The notes beneath the pieces were generated by a model. The model saw only the letters and a list, made by a program, of their open reading frames with translations, did not search any database and was not told the DNA's origin. A program made the translations under genes and the position numbers. Positions 1,585-32,825 of a DNA stretch of 64,000 nt are shown piece by piece. This DNA comes from an uncultured Candidatus Saccharibacteria bacterium (lineage in GTDB: Bacteria; Patescibacteriota; Minisyncoccia; Phycocordibacterales; PALSA-1337), in the NCBI GenBank assembly GCA_964600255.1, contig CAZRIX010000002.1, positions 34,067-98,066 on the forward strand, read 5' to 3'. Positions within the stretch are counted from its first letter, which is position 1; each line of letters opens with the position of its first letter.

Positions 1585-3516
1585 TTAAGCCGGTACAAAA
1601 TCCAAAGTCTTTTTATCTAGATCTGCCGCCACTACTTTGAACTTGATAGGGTCCCCAAGAGTAAATCTCTTACCTGTCTTTTGTCCGATAATTGAATATG
1701 TTTTCTTGTCGAATTGATAGAAATCTGTACCAATGTTTCTGATATTTATCATTCCTTCTGACTTAGTTTCCTTTTCTTCTACATAGATTCCGTACTCTGT
1801 AACTCCGGAAATAGTGCCATCAAATACACTTCCAACTTTATCTGACATGTACTCGACTTGCTTTAGTTTCTTTGATTCTCGCTCTGCACTAGCAGCATCG
1901 ATCTCGCGAGCTGTAGATTTTTCGGCAATGTCTTGGAAGGCGATTATCTCTTTGTCACCAAATGTATCGTGCATCAAATGTCTCTGTAGAATTCTTTGGA
2001 TCAAAAGATCGGGGTAACGACGAATAGGTGAAGTGAAGTGAGTGTAGTACTCAAATGCTAGTCCGAAGTGGCCAATGTTCTTTGTTGAATACACAGCCTT
2101 TTGCATTGAACGAATCAAAGCTGTACTGATGAGTGCCTCATGCTGTGTGCCTTGTATTTGGTTCAATAGAGACTTTATGTCGCGTGCTGTGACTTTGCCA
2201 TCCTTAGTCTTTAGATCATAACCTAGAGCCTTTACAAATACTGCAAGGTCAGCCATACGTTCCTGGTCTGGTAGGTCGTGGATTCGGTAAAGTGAGCCTG
2301 TATCTCTTTTTCCTTTACTTTTAATTGCGTCAAAAATGAACCTAGCAACTTCACGGTTTGCCAATAGCATATATTCCTCAACTAGCTTGTGAGTATCAAG
2401 ACGTTCTTTCTTGTAAACTCCGATTGGCTTGCCATTTTCATCTAGCTTAAACTTTATTTCTTCCTGTTCGAACTCTATAGCGCCATTGTCATACTTTTGT
2501 TTCTGGAGTATTTTTGCAATCTCATTTAATTTATTTAATTCCTTAAAATACATTCCAGACTTTACATTCAAAACTTCCTGAGCATCTTCATATGTGAATC
2601 TGTGATCAGAGTTTATGATCGTTTTGCCAAAATGTCTTTCAAGTACGTCACCTTTTTCATTTAGAACAAACCATGCAGAGAAAGTAAGCTTGTCTTCATG
2701 TGGATTAAGACTACAAACGTCGTTTGATAGGACCTCAGGAAGCATTGGTATTGTACGATCTACTAGATATATGGAACAACCGCGCTTCAAAGCCTCTTTA
2801 TCAAGTTCTGAACCTACTGCTACATAATGAGATACGTCGGCAATGTGTACTCCGATTTCGTATTTGCCGTTACCGACTTCCTTGAATGAAATAGCGTCAT
2901 CGAAGTCTTTTGCATCAAATGGATCGATAGTAAAAGTAAGTGTCTTTCGGAAATCGACACGTTTTGGAATCTCATTTGCTATGTCGGTGTTTTTGTTCTT
3001 CTCGATTGTGTCAGCTTCGGCTTCGACTGCAGGAGGGAAGTTGATCTCGAATCCTTTCTCGAGAACAATAGATTCCATCTCTACATTGTTATTACCTTTG
3101 CGTCCAAGTATGCGGATGATGTCACCCTCAGGGTTTACCTTTGGATCTGTCCATTCACGCATTTTGACGTAAACTTTGTCACCTATAGATACCTTGGTCT
3201 GATCTTCTTTTGATAGGCGAATAGAAGCATAGGCCTTTTTATCATCAGGATATGCTGTTAGAACTCCTTCGCGAGAATCAACTATACAAACAAAAGAGTC
3301 ACGAGCTCGTTTTATAACCTTTGTTACTTCAGCTGTTTGCTGCTTGAATGAATTGGTCTTACCTAGCTTAACCTCTACAATATCTCCGTTTAGAGCTGTA
3401 TTTAGATTACCTATTTCAACTATTATATCTTTCTCTGCATCCTCTGGGTTTCTTATGTATCCGATTCCTTTACGAGTAGTGATTATTGTACCTTGCATTA
3501 TTACGTCTTTTTTCAT
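1585..3516 (-). CDS. rnr: RNase R / RNase II family 3'-5' exoribonuclease (RNB domain), short form
   Basis: RNB catalytic-domain motifs (HFGLAFEYYTHFTSPIRRYPDL), an N-terminal cold-shock-like region and a C-terminal S1-like region. At 643 aa it is shorter than a typical RNase R. Confidence 0.85.
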   Translation of the reverse strand: MKKDVIMQGTIITTRKGIGYIRNPEDAEKDIIVEIGNLNTALNGDIVEVKLGKTNSFKQQTAEVTKVIKRARDSFVCIVDSREGVLTAYPDDKKAYASIRLSKEDQTKVSIGDKVYVKMREWTDPKVNPEGDIIRILGRKGNNNVEMESIVLEKGFEINFPPAVEAEADTIEKNKNTDIANEIPKRVDFRKTLTFTIDPFDAKDFDDAISFKEVGNGKYEIGVHIADVSHYVAVGSELDKEALKRGCSIYLVDRTIPMLPEVLSNDVCSLNPHEDKLTFSAWFVLNEKGDVLERHFGKTIINSDHRFTYEDAQEVLNVKSGMYFKELNKLNEIAKILQKQKYDNGAIEFEQEEIKFKLDENGKPIGVYKKERLDTHKLVEEYMLLANREVARFIFDAIKSKGKRDTGSLYRIHDLPDQERMADLAVFVKALGYDLKTKDGKVTARDIKSLLNQIQGTQHEALISTALIRSMQKAVYSTKNIGHFGLAFEYYTHFTSPIRRYPDLLIQRILQRHLMHDTFGDKEIIAFQDIAEKSTAREIDAASAERESKKLKQVEYMSDKVGSVFDGTISGVTEYGIYVEEKETKSEGMINIRNIGTDFYQFDKKTYSIIGQKTGKRFTLGDPIKFKVVAADLDKKTLDFVPA

Positions 3517-3605
3517 GTGAATACTATAGCTTAAATATGAGCTTGTATCAATGTATGTGTGGTAAGTGTTGACGTTTTTTATGCATTCTGCTAGTATATC
3601 TCCAC

Positions 3606-3953
3606 ATGTTAATGATACGTCTACAACGAGTAGGAAGAAAGCACGAACCAGTTTTTCGTCTTGTTCTTACTGATTCAAAAAATAGTACAAAGAGTGGCAA
3701 GTACATCGAGGTACTTGGTTCATATGATCCAAGACAAGAAAACAAGATTGAGCAGTTCAATCTTGCAAAGATCAAGGAACATATGTCAAAGGGTGCTAAG
3801 CTTTCAGACACAGTTCATAACTTCCTAGTTAGTAAGAAGGCAATAGATGGAAAGAAGAAGAATGTTCTTCCAAAGAAGACTCCTATAAAGAAGGATGCCC
3901 CTGAAGGTGAGGCAAAGCCAGCTCCTGCTCCAGCAGCTGCACCTGCTGCTTAG
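3606..3953 (+). CDS. rpsP: 30S ribosomal protein S16
   Basis: The MIRLQRVGRKHEPVFRLVLTD N-terminus is canonical S16. The Met at 3612 is the likelier start. It has a C-terminal low-complexity Ala/Pro/Lys tail. Confidence 0.9.
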   Translation: MLMIRLQRVGRKHEPVFRLVLTDSKNSTKSGKYIEVLGSYDPRQENKIEQFNLAKIKEHMSKGAKLSDTVHNFLVSKKAIDGKKKNVLPKKTPIKKDAPEGEAKPAPAPAAAPAA

Positions 3954-4077
3954 TTTGTTTGAATGCCGGTGTTTTTAATATATTTCTATATATTTGACAC
4001 TGTGTAAAACTCGCTTTTAATATATCCATAGTACGGTACAATTATCCAGAGACGATTATAAAATAAGAAAAACAGAA

Positions 4078-4392
4078 ATGAACAATATTGACCAGCAATT
4101 TTTAGACTACGTAGTTAAAGGACTAGTAGATAATCCAAATGATGTAAAGATTACAAGAACAGTAGATGAAATGGGAGTACTTTTGACACTAGAAGTAAGT
4201 GCGGCTGATATGGGAAAAGTTATCGGTCGTTCAGGTAACACAGCAAAAGCTATCAGAACTCTACTTCGCGTAGTGGGCATGAAGAATAATTCAAGAGTGA
4301 ACTTAAAGATTAATGAACCGGAAGGGGGGATCAAGGTTCCCGGATCAACAATGAAAACAGTTGATGAAGCAATGGCGGATTTGAATCTATAA
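4078..4392 (+). CDS. KH-domain RNA-binding protein (UPF0109/YlqC-like)
   Basis: KH motif VIGRSGNTAKAIRTLL. It sits downstream of rpsP, as this protein does in many bacteria. Confidence 0.8.
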   Translation: MNNIDQQFLDYVVKGLVDNPNDVKITRTVDEMGVLLTLEVSAADMGKVIGRSGNTAKAIRTLLRVVGMKNNSRVNLKINEPEGGIKVPGSTMKTVDEAMADLNL

Positions 4393-4413
4393 TAAAAAAT
4401 AATCTCAAAACAG

Positions 4414-4444
4414 AAGCCACTCGAAAGGGTGGTTTTTGTTTTGC
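4414..4444 (+). terminator. Intrinsic terminator after the KH gene
   Basis: aagCCACTCgaaaGGGTGGtttttgtttt: a 6-bp stem, GAAA loop and T-tract. Confidence 0.6.
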
Positions 4445-4507
4445 TCCTATATAGACCATATACTCATGATGTGGTATATTGTTGGCTGGTAAGAGAAAGG
4501 GTAATAG

Positions 4508-4882
4508 ATGAAACATGCTAAGTTAAAAGAATCGCCACTTGACGAAGTTGTGCATATACATGCCGTAGCACAGCACAATATCGAGGCGTACGAGAGAATG
4601 CCATTCAAACGCCTCGTCGGTCTGCTGCCGCATCTGCTCACAACCATCAACTGCTGGTTGCATCAGACTGATACCAAGATGCTCGGTCTGTGCAATGGGA
4701 ATAAGGCTTCGCTCAGGCGCTGGGCAAGTAGGGCCGACTTGATTCTGCGACACATCCACAGTCTTGAGCGCCTAGCGTCTCAAGATAAACCGCCTCGCCA
4801 AGAGGTAATTGCACAGTTGGCATTGATTGAAGCATATCGAGCTGGTGCCAGCTCAACCCTAGCCATCAACGGTGTCCTCTAG
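4508..4882 (+). CDS. Hypothetical protein; GC-rich; paralog of the ORF at 5020
   Basis: Open frame in a GC-rich segment. It shares the C-terminal motif I.QLALIEAYR with the next ORF. A hairpin terminator follows at about 4895-4930. Confidence 0.5.
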   Translation: MKHAKLKESPLDEVVHIHAVAQHNIEAYERMPFKRLVGLLPHLLTTINCWLHQTDTKMLGLCNGNKASLRRWASRADLILRHIHSLERLASQDKPPRQEVIAQLALIEAYRAGASSTLAINGVL

Positions 4883-5019
4883 GACACCCCTTTCACAACT
4901 TCGCGCAGCCACCTTTGTGTGGCGCGCGATTTTCTTTCAGCATTTTATAAGTTGAATTATTATTAAAAAAACGTATTATGCTTAGGAAAACTGCACTACA
5001 CAACAAAACATAGAAATAA

Positions 5020-5433
5020 ATGAGCAAAACATTCATCAGGGTTCCAGAGTATGAAGTAGCTTACATCCAAGGATTCACATCACGATGCATGGTTGCTCTG
5101 CAATCGCTAGTGGGTAGAGATCTTAGTGATCTAAGAAAGATGGTTTCCAATTATCGCAGTACCTTTATAGGACTCGGGGCGTCGATGATGCAACTACTCA
5201 AGGATGATGTTACTGAGTCTCATAACTGGACCGTCAGATTCGATCAAGTCATGGCTATGATTGATGAGGTTGAGCAACTACTCACCACTTATCCTGAAAC
5301 ACCCAATGACTGGCAAAAGGTGATAGGACGGATTGCTATCATTGAGGCGTATCGTGATAGTACGGATTGTACAATTCGAACCAACATCGCGCGCGCCTCA
5401 AATGAAGGTGAGATACAGTCTCTTTCAGCTTGA
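5020..5433 (+). CDS. Hypothetical protein; paralog of the ORF at 4508
   Basis: Shares ...VIGRIAIIEAYRDS... with the ORF at 4508. No recognisable domain. Confidence 0.5.
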   Translation: MSKTFIRVPEYEVAYIQGFTSRCMVALQSLVGRDLSDLRKMVSNYRSTFIGLGASMMQLLKDDVTESHNWTVRFDQVMAMIDEVEQLLTTYPETPNDWQKVIGRIAIIEAYRDSTDCTIRTNIARASNEGEIQSLSA

Positions 5434-5502
5434 AGGTGATCTCTCGTGACAAATTCAACATTCCGTGGTATTGTGTGATAACACCTACCACGGGATTTTT
5501 TT

Positions 5503-6186
5503 ATGAAATACCACATAATCACATTGTTTCCGCAAAGCCTCGATTCATATCTAAGTGAGTCTATTTTGAAACGCGCAATAGAGAAAAAGAAAATAGAGGT
5601 TAAGTTCTATAATCCTAGAGAATTCGCAACAACAAAGAAGAATCCAACATACTCAGACCTACGAGTTGATAACAAGCCATATGGCGGCGGTCCAGGAATG
5701 ATAATCGAGGCACTTCCAGTTATTCGTGCTATCGACAAAGCGGTTGGTAAAAAATTAAAAGATAAGAAAACTAAGTCTAAAGTTAAAATAGTCTGGTTTA
5801 GTCCATCTGGTAAACAGTTCGATACTGAGCAGGCCAAAACTTTTTCAAATAAACTCACTGACATAGTATTTATCTGTGGAAGATATGAAGGGATAGACGC
5901 TAGAGTTAAGAAAGCTTTTAAGGTTGAAGATATATCAGTAGGACCATTTGTCCTTACAGGAGGTGAATTGCCAGCTATGATCCTGATAGACACAATTTCT
6001 CGTCAGATAGAAGGGGTACTTGGAGACCATGCTTCACTAGAAGAAAATAGAATAGCCAGTCCAGATGTATATACTCGCCCAGAAGTAGTACAATATAAGG
6101 GTAAGAACTACAAAGTACCAAAGGTACTTCTGTCGGGTAACCACAAACTTATAGATGAATGGAGAAAACAACAGGGTCAGAAATAG
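5503..6186 (+). CDS. trmD: tRNA (guanine37-N1)-methyltransferase
   Basis: MKYHIITLFPQ... with RVDNKPYGGGPGMI, which matches the TrmD SPOUT-family signature. Confidence 0.9.
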   Translation: MKYHIITLFPQSLDSYLSESILKRAIEKKKIEVKFYNPREFATTKKNPTYSDLRVDNKPYGGGPGMIIEALPVIRAIDKAVGKKLKDKKTKSKVKIVWFSPSGKQFDTEQAKTFSNKLTDIVFICGRYEGIDARVKKAFKVEDISVGPFVLTGGELPAMILIDTISRQIEGVLGDHASLEENRIASPDVYTRPEVVQYKGKNYKVPKVLLSGNHKLIDEWRKQQGQK

Positions 6187-7117
6187 TCTCATAGTAGTTA
6201 CAGCTACTGTCCCATTTATTTTTATTGCTCTACTTTTTTATCTAAAACCAAATCAAATAAGCTTTGATCAATACACAGCTAACCATCACTATGTTCAGAA
6301 TGTAAAACTTTTGATAGTTGGAGACATTATGCTTGATCGTAATGTTCGAAATATTATAAATAAAAATGGATTCGAAAGTTTTTTTGCTGGTGTTAGAGAT
6401 CTCATTCAAAACGCCGACATATCGATTGCAAACTTAGAGGGTGCATTTACTACAAACCCTTCAGTTACCGCTAGTCTGGTTAGTAAGGAATTGATTTTTA
6501 CATTTGATCCTGTGCTTGCACCAAAGCTATCTGTGCTCGGATTCGATATTATGGGGCTTGCGAATAACCATACATATAACTACGGTGCCAAGGGTCTGGA
6601 ATCTACACGTAGATACGTAGGTACTGCCGGTATGCTCTACTACGGAGATCCGTTTAATAGGACTGAAATAAGTACGATAATAATAAAGAATGGAATAAGA
6701 ATAGGTGTGGTCGGTTTTCATGAGTTTTATTACACTAATTTTAATAATGTATTTTCAGAGATATCACGCTTAAGAAGTGAGGTGGATGTACTAATAGTTA
6801 CTCCACATTGGGGTGTTGAGTATCAGAAAGAACCAACAAAGAAGATGAAAGAGTGGGCTCACGCATTCATCGATAGTGGCGCCGATGCTGTTGTCGGTAC
6901 TCATACTCATATAGTAGGTGATACTGAGGTATATAAAGGTAAGAAAATATACTATTCACTAGGGAACTTTGCTTTCGATCAGTATTTCTCAAAGGCAACT
7001 AGTCAGGGATTGGCTGTCATTCTCGATATTGGAAAAGAAAGTGAAGGAATAACTATAGACTTTACAGATATACCAGTATATATAGACCGAACAGGGGTAA
7101 GAGTAGGAAGTATTTAA
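6155..7117 (+). CDS. CapA/PgsA-family metallophosphatase-fold protein (poly-gamma-glutamate capsule biosynthesis-like)
   Basis: N-terminal TM helix, then the calcineurin-like motifs LIVGDIMLDR and GLANNHTYNYG. Its 5' end overlaps trmD, and its last 50 nt fall inside the direct repeat described below. Confidence 0.75.
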   Translation: MNGENNRVRNSLIVVTATVPFIFIALLFYLKPNQISFDQYTANHHYVQNVKLLIVGDIMLDRNVRNIINKNGFESFFAGVRDLIQNADISIANLEGAFTTNPSVTASLVSKELIFTFDPVLAPKLSVLGFDIMGLANNHTYNYGAKGLESTRRYVGTAGMLYYGDPFNRTEISTIIIKNGIRIGVVGFHEFYYTNFNNVFSEISRLRSEVDVLIVTPHWGVEYQKEPTKKMKEWAHAFIDSGADAVVGTHTHIVGDTEVYKGKKIYYSLGNFAFDQYFSKATSQGLAVILDIGKESEGITIDFTDIPVYIDRTGVRVGSI

Positions 7118-7287
7118 CCCACTTGACAAATATCCTAGATATGCTAGGATATTAGAGGATCAACAGGGAAAGTCTATAAAAGCCAATAGGCTCTTTCAAG
7201 GGGATCCACAAATACAAATTCTCAAAAAGAGAAAGGAGTTAGCAACTCAGAACCCGATGTCTGCAGCCAATGCAAGCTAGGGCTAGT
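7068..7287 (+). repeat. Direct repeat, copy 1 (about 220 bp): CapA 3' end, operator/promoter palindrome and 5' part of a putative small RNA
   Basis: It is largely identical at both ends to 7343-7554, with a divergent internal hairpin (see the finding). Confidence 0.8.
7123..7153 (+). promoter_or_regulatory. TTGACA -35 box followed by a perfect 10-bp inverted repeat (AATATCCTAG-atatg-CTAGGATATT)
   Basis: Read directly from the sequence. This is an operator-like palindrome occupying the promoter spacer. Confidence 0.55.
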
Positions 7288-7335
7288 AAAATTAAGTTCA
7301 TGCAGAAATAAAACCGGCCGTAAAACGCCGGTTTC
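7155..7335 (+). ncRNA. Candidate small RNA 1 (unidentified), bounded by promoter/operator and intrinsic terminator
   Basis: No ORF. It contains internal hairpins and ends with aaaaCCGGCcgtaaaacGCCGGttt plus a T-tract (7311-7338). Confidence 0.3.
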
Positions 7336-7342
7336 TTCTTGT

Positions 7343-7554
7343 ATACCGATATATATAGACCTAACAGGGGTAAGAGTGGGTAGTATTTAACCCCCCTTGA
7401 CAAATATCCTAGATATGATAGGATATTAGAGGATCAACAGGGAAGTGTGCCGCTAGGCACCTTCTAGGGGATCCACAAATACAAATTCTCCAAAAGAGAA
7501 AGGAGTTGACCACTCGGAACCCGATGTCTGCAGCCAATGCAAGCTAGGGCTAGT
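7343..7554 (+). repeat. Direct repeat, copy 2, including a remnant of the CapA C-terminal coding sequence
   Basis: Near-identical to 7068-7287. It carries a second TTGACA plus palindrome (7397-7427) with one mismatch in the right arm. Confidence 0.8.
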
Positions 7555-7765
7555 CGACAAGTATTAAACCTACGGAATTAACGAAACCTACGTAAGAAGA
7601 AAGGCGCTAGTAACTAGTCACCCAAATGTTTACAGCAGCCAAAACTACCTTCCCAGAGGTAGTCGCCGTAAGCAAGGGCTGGTAAAAGAGTAAAAAAAAT
7701 AAAACGAGTTGGTATTAAAGAAAGAATAAAATGACCGGCGTCCTCAGAGGATCGCCGGTCTAATC
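7429..7765 (+). ncRNA. Candidate small RNA 2 (unidentified, about 330 nt): longer paralog of RNA 1 with a roughly 200-nt unique 3' extension
   Basis: Its 5' part is shared with RNA 1 but has a different internal hairpin (gtgccGCTAggcac versus agccAATaggct). It ends in a strong terminator GACCGGCGtcctcagaggatCGCCGGTC plus T-tract (7733-7768). No ORF. Confidence 0.3.
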
Positions 7766-7968
7766 TTTTATAAAAACCCAAAAACTGTGTATAAACCCAT
7801 TGACTTCTCTCTATATCTCTGCTAAGCTCACCCTAACTTCATTAGATTGTGTTACTCTTGCAAATTGAAGGATTTCGTTAGTATTCATTAGGTAGTGAGC
7901 GCACCCATTGAGTTTTATTACTAATTATTAATCCTTAGCATTTTTTGCTATTTTTGTTTACACTTTTT

Positions 7969-10900
7969 ATGCATACAACAAAAAAGTATTTCAGTCGTTT
8001 CAAGGCACCTCTGACCGAGATGCCAAACCTGGTAGAATCACAGGTTAAATCATTCGAAGTTTTAATAGAACAAGGTATAAGTGAAGTTTTGAAGGAATTT
8101 TCTCCTATCAAAGACTATGCTGGTAAGAAATTCGAACTATCATTTGTAGGTTTCGAACTTGCTAAGCCAAAGTATGACGAGCATTTTGCTAAGAACAACA
8201 AGCTTTCATATGAAGGTCAGATCAAGGTAAAGGTAAAGTTGAAGAACAAGTTGCTGGATTCAACAAAAGAGCAGGAAATGTTCCTTGCTGATTTGCCATT
8301 GATGACCGATCACGGTACTTTCATCATTAACGGTATCGAGAGAGTGATAGTTGCTCAGCTAGCACGCTCATTCGGTATTTTCTTCACAGCAAATGAAGCA
8401 AAGGGTAAAACTTTCTTCGGTGCAAAGGTTATCCCAGCTCGCGGAGTTTGGATGGAGATCGAATCTGATTCAGACGGTACTATATATGTAAGAATCGACC
8501 GCAAGAGAAAGTTCCCAATCACATCTCTTCTAAGAATCCTAGGTGCACAGACAGATGCTGATATCCTAGCGTACTTTAAGGGTAATGAATTGGCTGTAAA
8601 AGCTATAGAACTTACTCTAGCAAAGGATCATGCAAAGACAGTTGATGATGCCTATGTTGAGATTCACAAGAGATTAAGAGATGGTGATCTAGCTACAGCA
8701 GACAATGCTCGTGAATTCATCGGAAATATTTTTAATCCAGAAAGATACGACATCAATCGTGTTGGACGTTTCCGTTTCAACAAGAGATTCAATAAGTCTA
8801 TGGATGAAAAGGAATTGGAGAGACGTACAGTTAATGCTGATGACGTTGCTACAATTATTTCTCATATCGTAGAGCTAAACAATACTCCAGATGCAGTTGA
8901 AGATGATATTGATCACCTAGGATCAAGACGTGTTCGATATGTTGGAGAGCTTCTACAGCAAAAGCTTCGTGTTGGTATGACACAGATGAAGAGAAATATT
9001 CAGGACAGAATGTCTACAGTAGAGCCTGATGTTACTTTGCCTGTGAATTTCGTTTTCCCACGTCCACTACAGGCACGTATTAAGGAATTCTTCACAACAA
9101 ACCAGCTATCACAGTTCATGGGTCAGGAAAACGTTCTATCTGAGATCGAAAACCTACGTCTTCTAACAGCACTCGGTCCTGGAGGTCTTACACGCGAGAG
9201 AGCAGGATTCGAGGTTCGTGACGTTCACCCTTCTCACTACGGAAGACTATGTCCGATCCACACACCAGAAGGTCCAAACATCGGTCTTGTGCTACGTCTT
9301 TCAACATATGCACGTATCAATGATTTCGGAATGATTGAAACTCCATATGCAAAGGTAAAGAATGGAAAGGTCACAGAGGAAATCTCATATCTAAACGCTC
9401 TTGAAGAAGAGAATTTCAGAATCGCTCACGCAGCTATTCCTTATGATAAGTCAGGTAAAATCACAGCTGATGAAGTTGAGGTTCGTATCAATGGTAAACC
9501 AGGTCTTGCAAAGGCAAATGACGTGGACTATATCGACGTATCAACAAACCAAGCCTTTTCTATCGGTACATCATTGATTCCTTTCCTAAACCACGACGAT
9601 GCAAACCGTGCACTCATGGGATCTAACATGCAAAGACAGGCTACTCCTTGTATCGTAACTGAAGCACCTCTAGTTGCTACAGGAATCGAAAAGCAAGCCG
9701 TTGTAGATACAGGAAGAATCGTTCTAGCTCCAGAAGACGGAGAGATCGTATATGTAGATGCAAAGAAAGTTATTTTTGAAGGTAAGAAAGTTGGAAAGAA
9801 GGAATACAATCTAGTTCACTTCTCAAGAACAAACGGATTTACATCTTTCCACCAGCGCCCAATCGTTAATCTAGGACAAAAAGTAAAGAAGGGAGATGTT
9901 CTAGTTGATACATCGACATCAGACAATGGAGAGATCGCTCTAGGACAAAACATGCTAGTAGCCTTCATGTCATGGTCAGGAAACAACTACGAAGACGCTA
10001 TTATTCTTTCAGAAAGAGTTGTTAAGAATAGTAAGTTTACATCAATCAACATTGAAGAATTCGTAGTAAACGTTCGCGATACAAAGCTAGGACCTGAAGT
10101 TACAACTTGCGATATTCCAAACGTCAGTGAAGCAAAGCTAAAGAATCTTGCAGAAGATGGAGTAGTTCGTGTTGGAGCAGAAGTTCGTCCAGGAGATATC
10201 TTGGTTGGTAAGATTTCACCAAAGGGTGAGACTCAACTTACACCAGAAGAGAGACTGCTACGCTCAATCTTCGGAGAAAAAGCTCGTGATGTAAAAGATA
10301 CATCAAAGAGAATGGAAGGAGGAAAGAGAGGACGTGTTATCTCAGTTAAGATTTTCTCTAGAGACAGAGGAGACAAGCTAGAATCTGGAATCATCAAGAA
10401 GATTTACATTGAAGTTGCAGAACTAAGAAATGTATCTGTTGGAGACAAGCTAGCTGGTCGTCACGGAAACAAGGGAGTTATTTCAAGAATCCTACCTGAG
10501 GAAGATATGCCATACATGGAAGATGGAACACCAGTAGATGTTATTCTAACACCACTTGGAGTGCCTTCACGTATGAACCTAGGACAGATTCTAGAACTTC
10601 ACCTTGGTCTAGCTGCAAATACTCTAGGATACCAGGCTATTGTTCCACCATTTACAGGAGCTACTGATGTTGAAATCAAGGAGGAGCTTGTAAAGGCAGG
10701 ATTCGATGCTTCAGGTAAAATGAAACTACGCGATGGTAGAACAGGAGTACATTTCGATCAGCCAATCGCTGTTGGTTATATGTACATCTTGAAACTTCAC
10801 CACATGGTTGAGGATAAAATCCACATGCGTTCAATCGGACCTTACTCTCTCATTACTCAACAGCCACTTGGAGGTAAAGCTCAGGGTGGAGGACAGAGAT

Positions 10901-32752: not shown

Positions 32753-32825
32753 GGGCTCGTAGCTCAGATGGTAGAGCAATCGCTTTGCAAGCGAAAGGTC
32801 AGGAGTTCGAATCTCCTCGAGTCCA
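32753..32825 (+). tRNA. tRNA-Ala (anticodon UGC)
   Basis: GGGCTCGTAGCTCAGATGGTAGAGC...CTTTGCAAG...GGAGTTCGAATCTCCTCGAGTCCA: a cloverleaf with a G3:U70 pair in the acceptor stem, anticodon TGC, and the GTTCGAATC T-loop. No encoded CCA. Confidence 0.9.

Follow-up and report, generated by a model that had tools for sequence, protein, structure and literature searches.

A tandem repeat upstream of rpoB in a Candidatus Saccharibacteria genome may encode two sibling small RNAs

We analysed a stretch of 64,000 nucleotides from an uncultured Candidatus Saccharibacteria bacterium (assembly GCA_964600255.1, contig CAZRIX010000002.1; hereafter the window), and in particular the space between its capA and rpoB genes. 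Our preferred reading, which we would give about an even chance, is that this space holds two tandem paralogous small RNA (sRNA) genes. They would be siblings within an uncatalogued, lineage-restricted Patescibacteria family, acting in trans through a common scaffold and divergent loops, and each would be transcribed from its own strong sigma-70-type promoter and end at its own intrinsic terminator. The genes of the locus run in the order RNase R (minus strand), rpsP, a khpA-like gene, two ORFan genes, trmD, capA, the RNA region, rpoB, a gene of 264 amino acids (aa) and rpoC. The capA open reading frame (ORF), which encodes a PGA_cap domain, occupies 6155-7117 on the plus strand, and the rpoB ATG lies at 7969. 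Features described below are on the plus strand unless stated otherwise, and other contigs are given by their L numbers.

The duplicated unit and its predicted RNAs

The segment at 7069-7287 occurs again at 7342-7554 with about 90% identity (220 aligned columns, 21 substitutions, 8 gap columns). This is far beyond chance, and upholds the direct repeat of roughly 220 bp described in the original prediction, a set of notes made by a model from the DNA letters alone. The repeat also takes in the end of capA, as had been claimed: the unit starts 49 nt before the capA stop codon, which is included in the opening part of unit 1 (7069-7117). Because the repeat begins 49 nt inside capA, copy 2 opens with a dead, non-coding capA fragment (7342-7390), recognised by alignment to the true capA end.

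Both copies then present TTGACA-N16-TGnTAGGAT. The promoter scan placed the promoter of sRNA gene 1 at 7123-7150 (TTGACA, 16-nt spacer, TAGGAT, TG at -14; 10/12 hexamer matches) and that of sRNA gene 2, with the same hexamers and spacing, at 7397-7424. Placing transcription starts about 7 nt past the -10 element puts them near 7157 and 7431, and the predicted products are an sRNA 1 of ~185 nt (~7157-7341) and an sRNA 2 of ~340 nt (~7431-7769). No plus-strand ORF of at least 20 aa was found between 7118 and 7799, in agreement with the claim that the transcript bodies are free of ORFs. At the level of sequence, the region therefore consists of adjacent homologous non-coding genes, each with a promoter and a terminator, which is the arrangement expected of tandem siblings.

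Two strong terminators had been proposed. T1 (7311-7341), the putative 3' end of sRNA 1, has the form AAACCGGC-CGUAAAAC-GCCGGUUU followed by CUUCUUG; it was called by the terminator scan, as 7311-7334 plus a U-rich tail, and recovered by folding. T2 (7733-7769), which would end sRNA 2, is a hairpin GACCGGCG...CGCCGGUC at 7733-7760 followed by CUAAUCUUUU. Its T run is interrupted and the scan did not call it, yet the predicted fold is strong and the element is conserved in the nearest relative, L002 (4856-4883). On the minus strand, T2 has a better U tract (AUUUUAUUCUUUCUUU) than on the plus strand, and it could serve as a bidirectional terminator.

The two RNAs appear to follow a common plan. 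A 5' hairpin whose apex varies is joined by an A-rich linker to a small hairpin running into AGAAAGG; sRNA 1 then has one module and sRNA 2 has two, and both finish with an A-rich spacer and the terminator. In predicted folds the 5' hairpin of sRNA 1 (7157-7207) is closed by GGAUC/GAUCC and has an apex, at about 7173-7194, that is hypervariable between the copies; its counterpart in sRNA 2 (7431-7474) has the same closing stem and the apex GUGCC-GCUA-GGCAC. The small hairpin H1 of sRNA 1 (7219-7233) reads UUCUC-AAAAA-GAGAA. H1 of sRNA 2 (7486-7500; UUCUC-CAAAA-GAGAA), which differs from it only in the loop, was assigned by homology with copy 1, the predicted copy-2 fold pairing this stretch only in part.

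The module itself spans ~70-100 nt and can be written AGAAAGG...ACUAGGNACCC...AAGCNAGGGCUNGUAA, with a small hairpin, ACCC and an internal hairpin. It occurs three times. M1 (7226-7293), found by pattern search, comprises AGAAAGG, the small hairpin, ACCC, a short hairpin UGCA-GCCAA-UGCA and AAGCUAGGGCUAGUAA; it scored 72.6 bits with a covariance model that had M1 in its training set. M2 (7493-7565) is the same from ACCC on and has another small-hairpin loop, as seen by pattern search, covariance model and alignment. M3 (7594-7694), supported by pattern search, covariance model and folds, is a long form with an apical hairpin CUACCU-UCCCAG-AGGUAG at 7645-7662; its orthologue in L002 is the only module of that gene. 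The 3' part of copy 2, put forward originally as a unique domain, is thus a third, diverged copy of the module followed by an A-rich spacer and T2. That spacer (7695-7732) is unstructured and poorly conserved relative to L002; an A/U-rich spacer occupies the matching position in L016. Across the window, the pattern GAAAGG-N11-17-ACCC was found four times against 0.43 expected, and 3/4 of the occurrences fall in this region.

No known RNA family accounts for these sequences, which bears out what had been noted by eye. A cmscan of 6900-8100 against Rfam 15 at E<=10 gave noise only; the best match was GibS, which scored 29.9 bits where the threshold is 115, on the strand opposite the terminator. 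We consider this match spurious, since the minus strand of T2 carries a hairpin and the better U tract. At gathering thresholds, Rfam found one transfer RNA (tRNA) in the whole window and only tRNAs in L002, L003, L006, L009 and L016, and ARAGORN found no transfer-messenger RNA, reporting only a tRNA-Ala at 32753.

Individual candidates were also rejected. 6S RNA forms a rod of about 180 nt, with its 5' and 3' ends paired and a bubble at the centre, whereas the folds predicted here are multi-hairpin with unpaired ends and have no Rfam 6S match. The supposed P4 strands of RNase P (GGGAAAGUCU and CAGAACCCG, both in copy 1) are not complementary to each other, the first is missing from copy 2, the RNA is of insufficient size, and Rfam gives no match. 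For domain IV of the signal recognition particle RNA (GUUUAC, AGCAGCCAA) the order is wrong and the loop is not GNRA; the defining helices of the preQ1-I and nadA riboswitches are absent; and a mimic of the 23S GTPase centre or of the 16S 3' minor domain was set aside as a match of short blocks only. A ToxI-like array of a type III toxin-antitoxin system does not fit either, with rpoB downstream and modules of 70-100 nt that are not near-identical and number one or two per transcript. A phage or mobile origin was rejected: blastn gave no match among phages and one 45-nt match among plasmids, in the A-rich spacer, and two pattern scans of viral contigs found nothing. In L002, a 63-aa ORF overlies the RNA. 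It starts upstream of the -10 element, stop codons interrupt it in the window, and a search of 5.8 billion proteins with it, meant to catch ORFs miscalled over homologous RNAs, returned nothing but the ORF itself. The RNA region is, to judge from these observations, not coding.

The differences between the copies are very unevenly spread. There are no substitutions in the core from ACCC to GUAA (0/36) and two in the promoter, outer stem and linker together (2/74); the dead capA fragment has 5/49, the columns around the second hairpin loop 4/18 and the 5' hairpin apex 8/17 plus a 7-nt indel. By hand arithmetic at a rough neutral rate of 10%, 0/36 has P ~0.02 and at least 8/17 has P ~1e-4. The original statement that the copies differ at one hairpin alone therefore does not hold, as changes also cluster in the second small loop and the capA fragment. 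Nor is the variable hairpin a foreign replacement: both copies have GCC-NN-UAGGC, which marks it as a diverged homologue. Its stem is kept in both (AGCC-AAUA-GGCU versus GUGCC-GCUA-GGCAC), with one pair changed in a compensatory manner from A-U to U-A. The pattern agrees with a conserved scaffold whose two loops evolve fast. Between the copy-1 apex (7169-7178) and capA (7054-7063) there is a complementarity of 10 nt, which was dismissed as being at chance level in 2 kb.

With terminators removed, the bodies were more stable than shuffled sequences (z = -3.3 for sRNA 1, -3.0 for sRNA 2 and -2.7 for the L002 orthologue), and in a pair count over the two outer helices of five modules 92.5% of cells were paired. 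The module structure is compatible with the data and plausible, not proven. The proposal of selection on RNA structure is overstated: the apex stem is preserved through a compensatory change, but independent comparisons are few and the outer helices show no double-sided changes.

Relatives, history and rival explanations

Corresponding loci were found through capA homologues, those at 56-61% identity bearing the source labels Patescibacteria or Candidatus Paceibacterota. In L002 (capA 82% identical; identical copies in L018 and L019) a single gene occupies the corresponding place. It comprises TTGACA-N16-TAGTAT, a 5' hairpin with the closing stem CCAGCC/GGCUGG, H1 in the form UUCUCC-AAAA-GGAGAA, one M3-type module and T2. 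Promoter hexamers and spacing are common to L002 and the window, and the module, ~83% identical to M3 (hand count on the alignment), stands with T2 between a 5' domain and an A-rich spacer that are largely different and far more diverged. In L017 the promoter is kept over 39 nt, up to the contig end, and the capA 3' end differs.

The 5' side of the L002 gene (promoter and small hairpin) corresponds to the window copies and its 3' side to M3 and T2, and from this we infer that M3 and its terminator are the ancestral core and the duplicated part is derived. The ancestral gene, as in the nearest relative, would have had one long-form module. In the window lineage this module would have been duplicated within the gene, the upstream module would then have lost its apical hairpin, and finally the capA 3' end would have been copied together with the promoter, the 5' hairpin and the short module in a 273-bp tandem duplication, leaving a linker that now forms T1.

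More distant homologues were sought with one pattern scan each of a genome and a metagenome collection, using a pattern that required GAAAGG. There were five matches. When rescored with a covariance model built without them, L016:3847-3925 (minus strand) gave 33 bits (E ~3e-5) and the other four at most 12.6 bits; these four are chance matches. L016 is an unrelated, Patescibacteria-like contig with a pilin-like gene, dnaX and a purC-like gene. Its module lies near dnaX, at the 3' end of a long ORF-free stretch, and is followed by the A/U-rich spacer and a strong terminator. The module is thus present in at least two genomic contexts and otherwise rare at the stringency used. The L016 stretch itself (3245-4466, minus strand) is ~1.1 kb of ORF-free sequence upstream of dnaX with two apparent promoter-to-terminator units, the first ending in the module homologue; it has recurring GAACCCG and GAAAGG motifs and no Rfam or ARAGORN match.

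Under the model of two sibling sRNAs, the RNAs would act in trans as regulators. The conserved module would be a scaffold or a common effector site. The specificity of each sibling would be set by its hypervariable loops, one at the apex of the 5' hairpin and the other in the small hairpin that follows AGAAAGG. A palindrome over the spacer and -10 possibly adds control of the promoters in this genome.

A number of observations weigh against this model. The positions at which the transcripts begin and end are themselves deduced from the DNA. No base pair changed on both sides in the pair count, RNAalifold on a MAFFT alignment found almost nothing, and the register of the small hairpin after AGAAAGG differs, by eye, between short and long modules. 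Gene conversion could be the source of the patchy identity between the copies. The conservation of M3 and T2 could partly come from recent shared ancestry of the rpoB side instead of selection, an alternative raised by the mosaic way in which the window and L002 have diverged: their 4-fold degenerate sites have an identity of 0.32 in capA and 0.92 in rpoB, and the neutral baseline is ill-defined. The family is tiny: besides the window it has members in one close lineage (L002, L017-L019) and a single distant match (L016). In L003-L005 (capA 71%) there is no RNA, the capA stop codon leading straight to the rpoB promoter; in L021 (capA 68%) another gene lies 63 nt downstream of capA and the RNA is absent at the locus; and downstream of capA in L006-L011, L023 and L025 (capA 64-65%) lie ddl or other genes, without a module. 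Across the capA loci L003-L011 and L020-L025, no module was found.

Nor did a target stand out in the window: when each RNA was paired by RNAduplex with 57 start regions there, the best energies were within the range of shuffled controls. The mRNAs of the inspected genes also lack Shine-Dalgarno sequences: 12/13 window genes have none, the exception being the ORFan gene P124, and a crude survey found a Shine-Dalgarno-like sequence in 6/57 start regions. The starts inspected include 3606, 3516 (minus), 18056, 18017 (minus), 7969 and 11976. Several genes, among them rpsP, RNase R and GAPDH, start 6-8 nt past a TAGTAT or TATAAT hexamer, which suggests that leaderless mRNAs are widespread in this organism. 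A C-rich seed directed at Shine-Dalgarno sequences, as is usual in low-GC bacteria, is therefore unlikely here.

The strongest competing explanation, which we regard as unlikely without being far-fetched, is that the locus has one functional gene, made up of promoter 2 or 1, M3 and T2. Copy 1, M1, M2 and the capA fragment would then be products of a recent neutral duplication, drifting or homogenised by gene conversion. Only M3 and T2 have an orthologue in L002, M1 and M2 lack the apical hairpin and have mismatches in the outer helix, and the duplication carried along a useless piece of capA. A neighbouring ORFan is also duplicated, suggesting a duplication-prone locus, and the overall divergence of the copies (~10%) is similar to that of the dead fragment. 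However, copy 1 has a complete promoter and a good T1, the equivalent of which is missing in copy 2; the substitutions are not uniform, the core being untouched and the apex heavily changed; and the apex stem is kept by a compensatory change.

An improbable alternative is that the RNA binds a cellular factor, either a protein or the 16S 3' tail of the 30S subunit, through the reiterated module headed by AGAAAGG, and so acts as a sponge or decoy. Reiteration of the module in one transcript would fit this, as would the invariance of AGAAAGG in the four modules of the window and L002. AGAAAGG is what we take to be the complement of the usual 16S 3' tail, CCUUUCU (the 16S gene of this organism is not in the window), and a conserved Shine-Dalgarno-like motif is conspicuous where the checked genes have none; the failure to find a base-pairing target among the 57 start regions points the same way. 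Against it, no binding partner was identified, conservation of GAAAGG in L016 follows by construction from the search pattern, and AGAAAGG is not rare, with 17 occurrences on the plus strand of the window. The GGA motifs, moreover, fall in predicted stems, unlike those of CsrA-type sponges.

A related proposal, and one we find just as doubtful, extends the module to the core of a wider, Patescibacteria-specific class of structured RNAs. Such RNAs would occur in unrelated contexts with one to several modules per transcript, on the outline AGAAAGG, ACUAGG-N-ACCC, internal hairpin, AAGCNAGGGCUNGUAA, A-rich spacer and terminator, and the head of the module would engage the 16S 3' tail or a dedicated protein. 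If this were true, the module would be a decoy or regulator of the translation apparatus and not an ordinary antisense sRNA, in organisms whose mRNAs are largely leaderless and without Shine-Dalgarno sequences.

It is very improbable that the region encodes very short peptides, with AGAAAGG as the ribosome-binding site and the hairpin bringing an AUG close to it. The peptides would be MSAANAS in M1 and M2, MFTAAKTTFPEVVAVSKGW in M3 and MAAKATFPEVVATSKG in L002. M3 and L002 do retain an in-frame AUG despite a 1-nt indel just upstream, and have in common the downstream frame ...TFPEVVA.SKG, in which two codon differences are synonymous. But the AUG stands 19-27 nt away from the Shine-Dalgarno-like motif, a TAG ends the frame in M1 and M2 after 7 codons, and L016 has no start codon in the equivalent frame. 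Non-synonymous changes plus a stop/Trp difference are as frequent as synonymous ones, the checked genes do not use Shine-Dalgarno sequences, and the protein database holds no homologue.

Finally, we find it scarcely credible that the element serves the rpoBC operon, be it as a cis-acting leader or attenuator or through processive antitermination. It does lie directly upstream of rpoB in the window and L002, and its terminators could in principle be regulated. But rpoB has its own promoter (TTGACT-N17-TAAGCT with TG, by eye) and a ~170-nt leader past T2, and L003, where there is no RNA element, has both of them intact and nearly unchanged. No alternative antiterminator pairing is evident, and no Rfam leader family matches. 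We prefer a free-standing RNA to a leader also because the only other module found, in L016, adjoins dnaX instead of rpoB.

Promoter palindrome and neighbouring genes

The original prediction placed a perfect 10-bp palindrome, AATATCCTAG-N5-CTAGGATATT, in each copy. An inverted-repeat search confirmed it in copy 1, as AATATCCTAG-ATATG-CTAGGATATT at 7129-7153, over the spacer and -10; in copy 2 (7403-7427) it is imperfect, matching at 9/10 positions, with the right arm ATAGGATATT (ATAGG for CTAGG). Perfect 10-bp inverted repeats with loops of 0-10 nt occur at five loci in the window, compared with a mean of about one in Markov simulations. The copy-1 site is a 25-bp dyad (10+5+10) overlapping the core promoter at 7123-7150. 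This is the classical position for a repressor, and repressors bound there exclude RNA polymerase. The dyad resembles the operators of LexA-, TetR- and Fur-type repressors in lying between the -35 element and the transcription start and covering the -10. It differs from them in having no cognate protein found, no second site in 64 kb, no conservation in L002 or L017, and a mismatch in copy 2.

Conservation of the palindrome in relatives, a further expectation, was not seen: AATTTCTGTAGATATGCTAGTATAT stands at this place in the orthologous promoters of L002 and L017 and lacks dyad symmetry. The palindrome would have arisen from it through about six changes, counted by eye. At up to three mismatches, no further site was found in the window or in the viral contigs. 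No cognate DNA-binding protein was found among the neighbouring ORFans, the only proteins examined for this. These ORFan paralogues had been considered as the repressor on a tally of one ORFan and one RNA in L002 and two of each in the window. They were rejected, P137 being modelled as a four-helix bundle (predicted local distance difference test score, pLDDT, 83) with no helix-turn-helix and no significant match in the PDB, and the family being present in L021, which has no RNA at the locus. The dedicated repressor read from the palindrome is thus reduced to a conjecture for this lineage. Operator control of the promoters is plausible for this genome, and we put it forward tentatively as possible, short of probable.

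The ORFan paralogues lie between khpA and trmD at 4508-4882 (P124, 124 aa) and 5020-5433 (P137, 137 aa) and match each other by BLASTP at E = 1e-7. Both genes apparently have their own terminator hairpin at the 3' side, by eye. The family consists of only five clusters among 5.8 billion proteins, plus a divergent member in L021. P124, unlike its neighbours, has a Shine-Dalgarno-like AGAGAAAGGG ahead of its ATG.

Divergence along 4078-8292 of the window is mosaic in comparison with L002 and L003. Identity to L002 at 4-fold sites is 0.54 in trmD, 0.61 in khpA, 0.77 in rpsP and an unusually high 0.87 in P124, in addition to the values for capA and rpoB given above. Either capA evolves much faster than the genes around it, or it has undergone exchange with a lineage further away.

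The rpoB promoter and leader show few changes: 7780-7968 of the window has 3 differences in ~200 nt relative to L002:4905-5093, and about ten, downstream of the -35 element, relative to L003:6990-7167. This segment is slightly more conserved than rpoB 4-fold sites (0.88-0.92). The leader has no Rfam match, and its predicted structure is weak (z = -1.1). It could have been conserved for a regulatory role, or the segment may simply have diverged little.

In distant relatives, the space between capA and ddl holds ORF-free promoter-to-terminator units at L006:6966-7200, L025:3480-3542, L009:7310-7440 and L023:4695-4860. These have an extended -10 (TGnTAGTAT type) and sequences unrelated to the window RNA, the L006 type occurring again in L025. 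The intergenic position downstream of capA seems to be a hot spot for small-RNA-like genes. L023 also has an ORF of 154 aa at 821-1285, on the upstream side of the rpsP cluster, which gives a weak Pfam match to Cas12f1-like_TNB (TnpB-type).

Comparison with known systems

The genomes of Patescibacteria, or the candidate phyla radiation (CPR), are very small and encode few regulators that can be recognised, and to our knowledge no small RNA of theirs has been characterised so far. In bacteria at large, sRNA genes confined to one lineage are common, and so are tandem sibling pairs. The pair described here has no membership in a catalogued family and, from what can be read in its sequence, is an ordinary kind of gene. 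It is also a cleanly delimited candidate with natural variation: the gene is single in the nearest relative and doubled here, a transcript would carry one module or two, and two loops have diverged fast beside an identical core. Such variation makes the locus convenient for testing how sibling sRNAs originate and specialise.

The multicopy LhrC1-5 family of Listeria monocytogenes carries redundant C-rich motifs in loops or single-stranded stretches (PMC4132741). Similarly, M3 and its L002 orthologue have a UCCC-containing hexaloop (7651-7656 in M3) and every module has an unpaired ACCC. In contrast, the LhrC motifs pair with G-rich Shine-Dalgarno regions, which the checked genes here do not have. 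With a single UCCC loop, in M3 only and missing from sRNA 1, the pair does not fall into the UCCC-motif anti-Shine-Dalgarno class of the LhrC and RsaE type.

Tandem siblings are known in OmrA/OmrB, PrrF1/PrrF2 and AbcR1/2 (PMC4211561). In the PrrF1/PrrF2 pair of Pseudomonas aeruginosa, bypass of the first terminator gives a longer read-through RNA, PrrH (PMC4211561). Read-through of T1 would, hypothetically, likewise give a composite RNA with all three modules; Fur-type regulation and sequence similarity to PrrF are both lacking here. OmrA and OmrB of Enterobacterales are adjacent duplicates with their own promoters and terminators, near-identical in part and with an internal divergent segment thought to set target specificity (PMC4211561). 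The RNAs predicted here have no sequence or Rfam relationship to them, are longer (~185 and ~340 nt) and modular, and diverge in hairpin loops rather than in a single-stranded central stretch. The overall layout is nevertheless alike, in that the promoter, outer stem and core of the two copies are near-identical and the divergence is found in the apex and the second loop.

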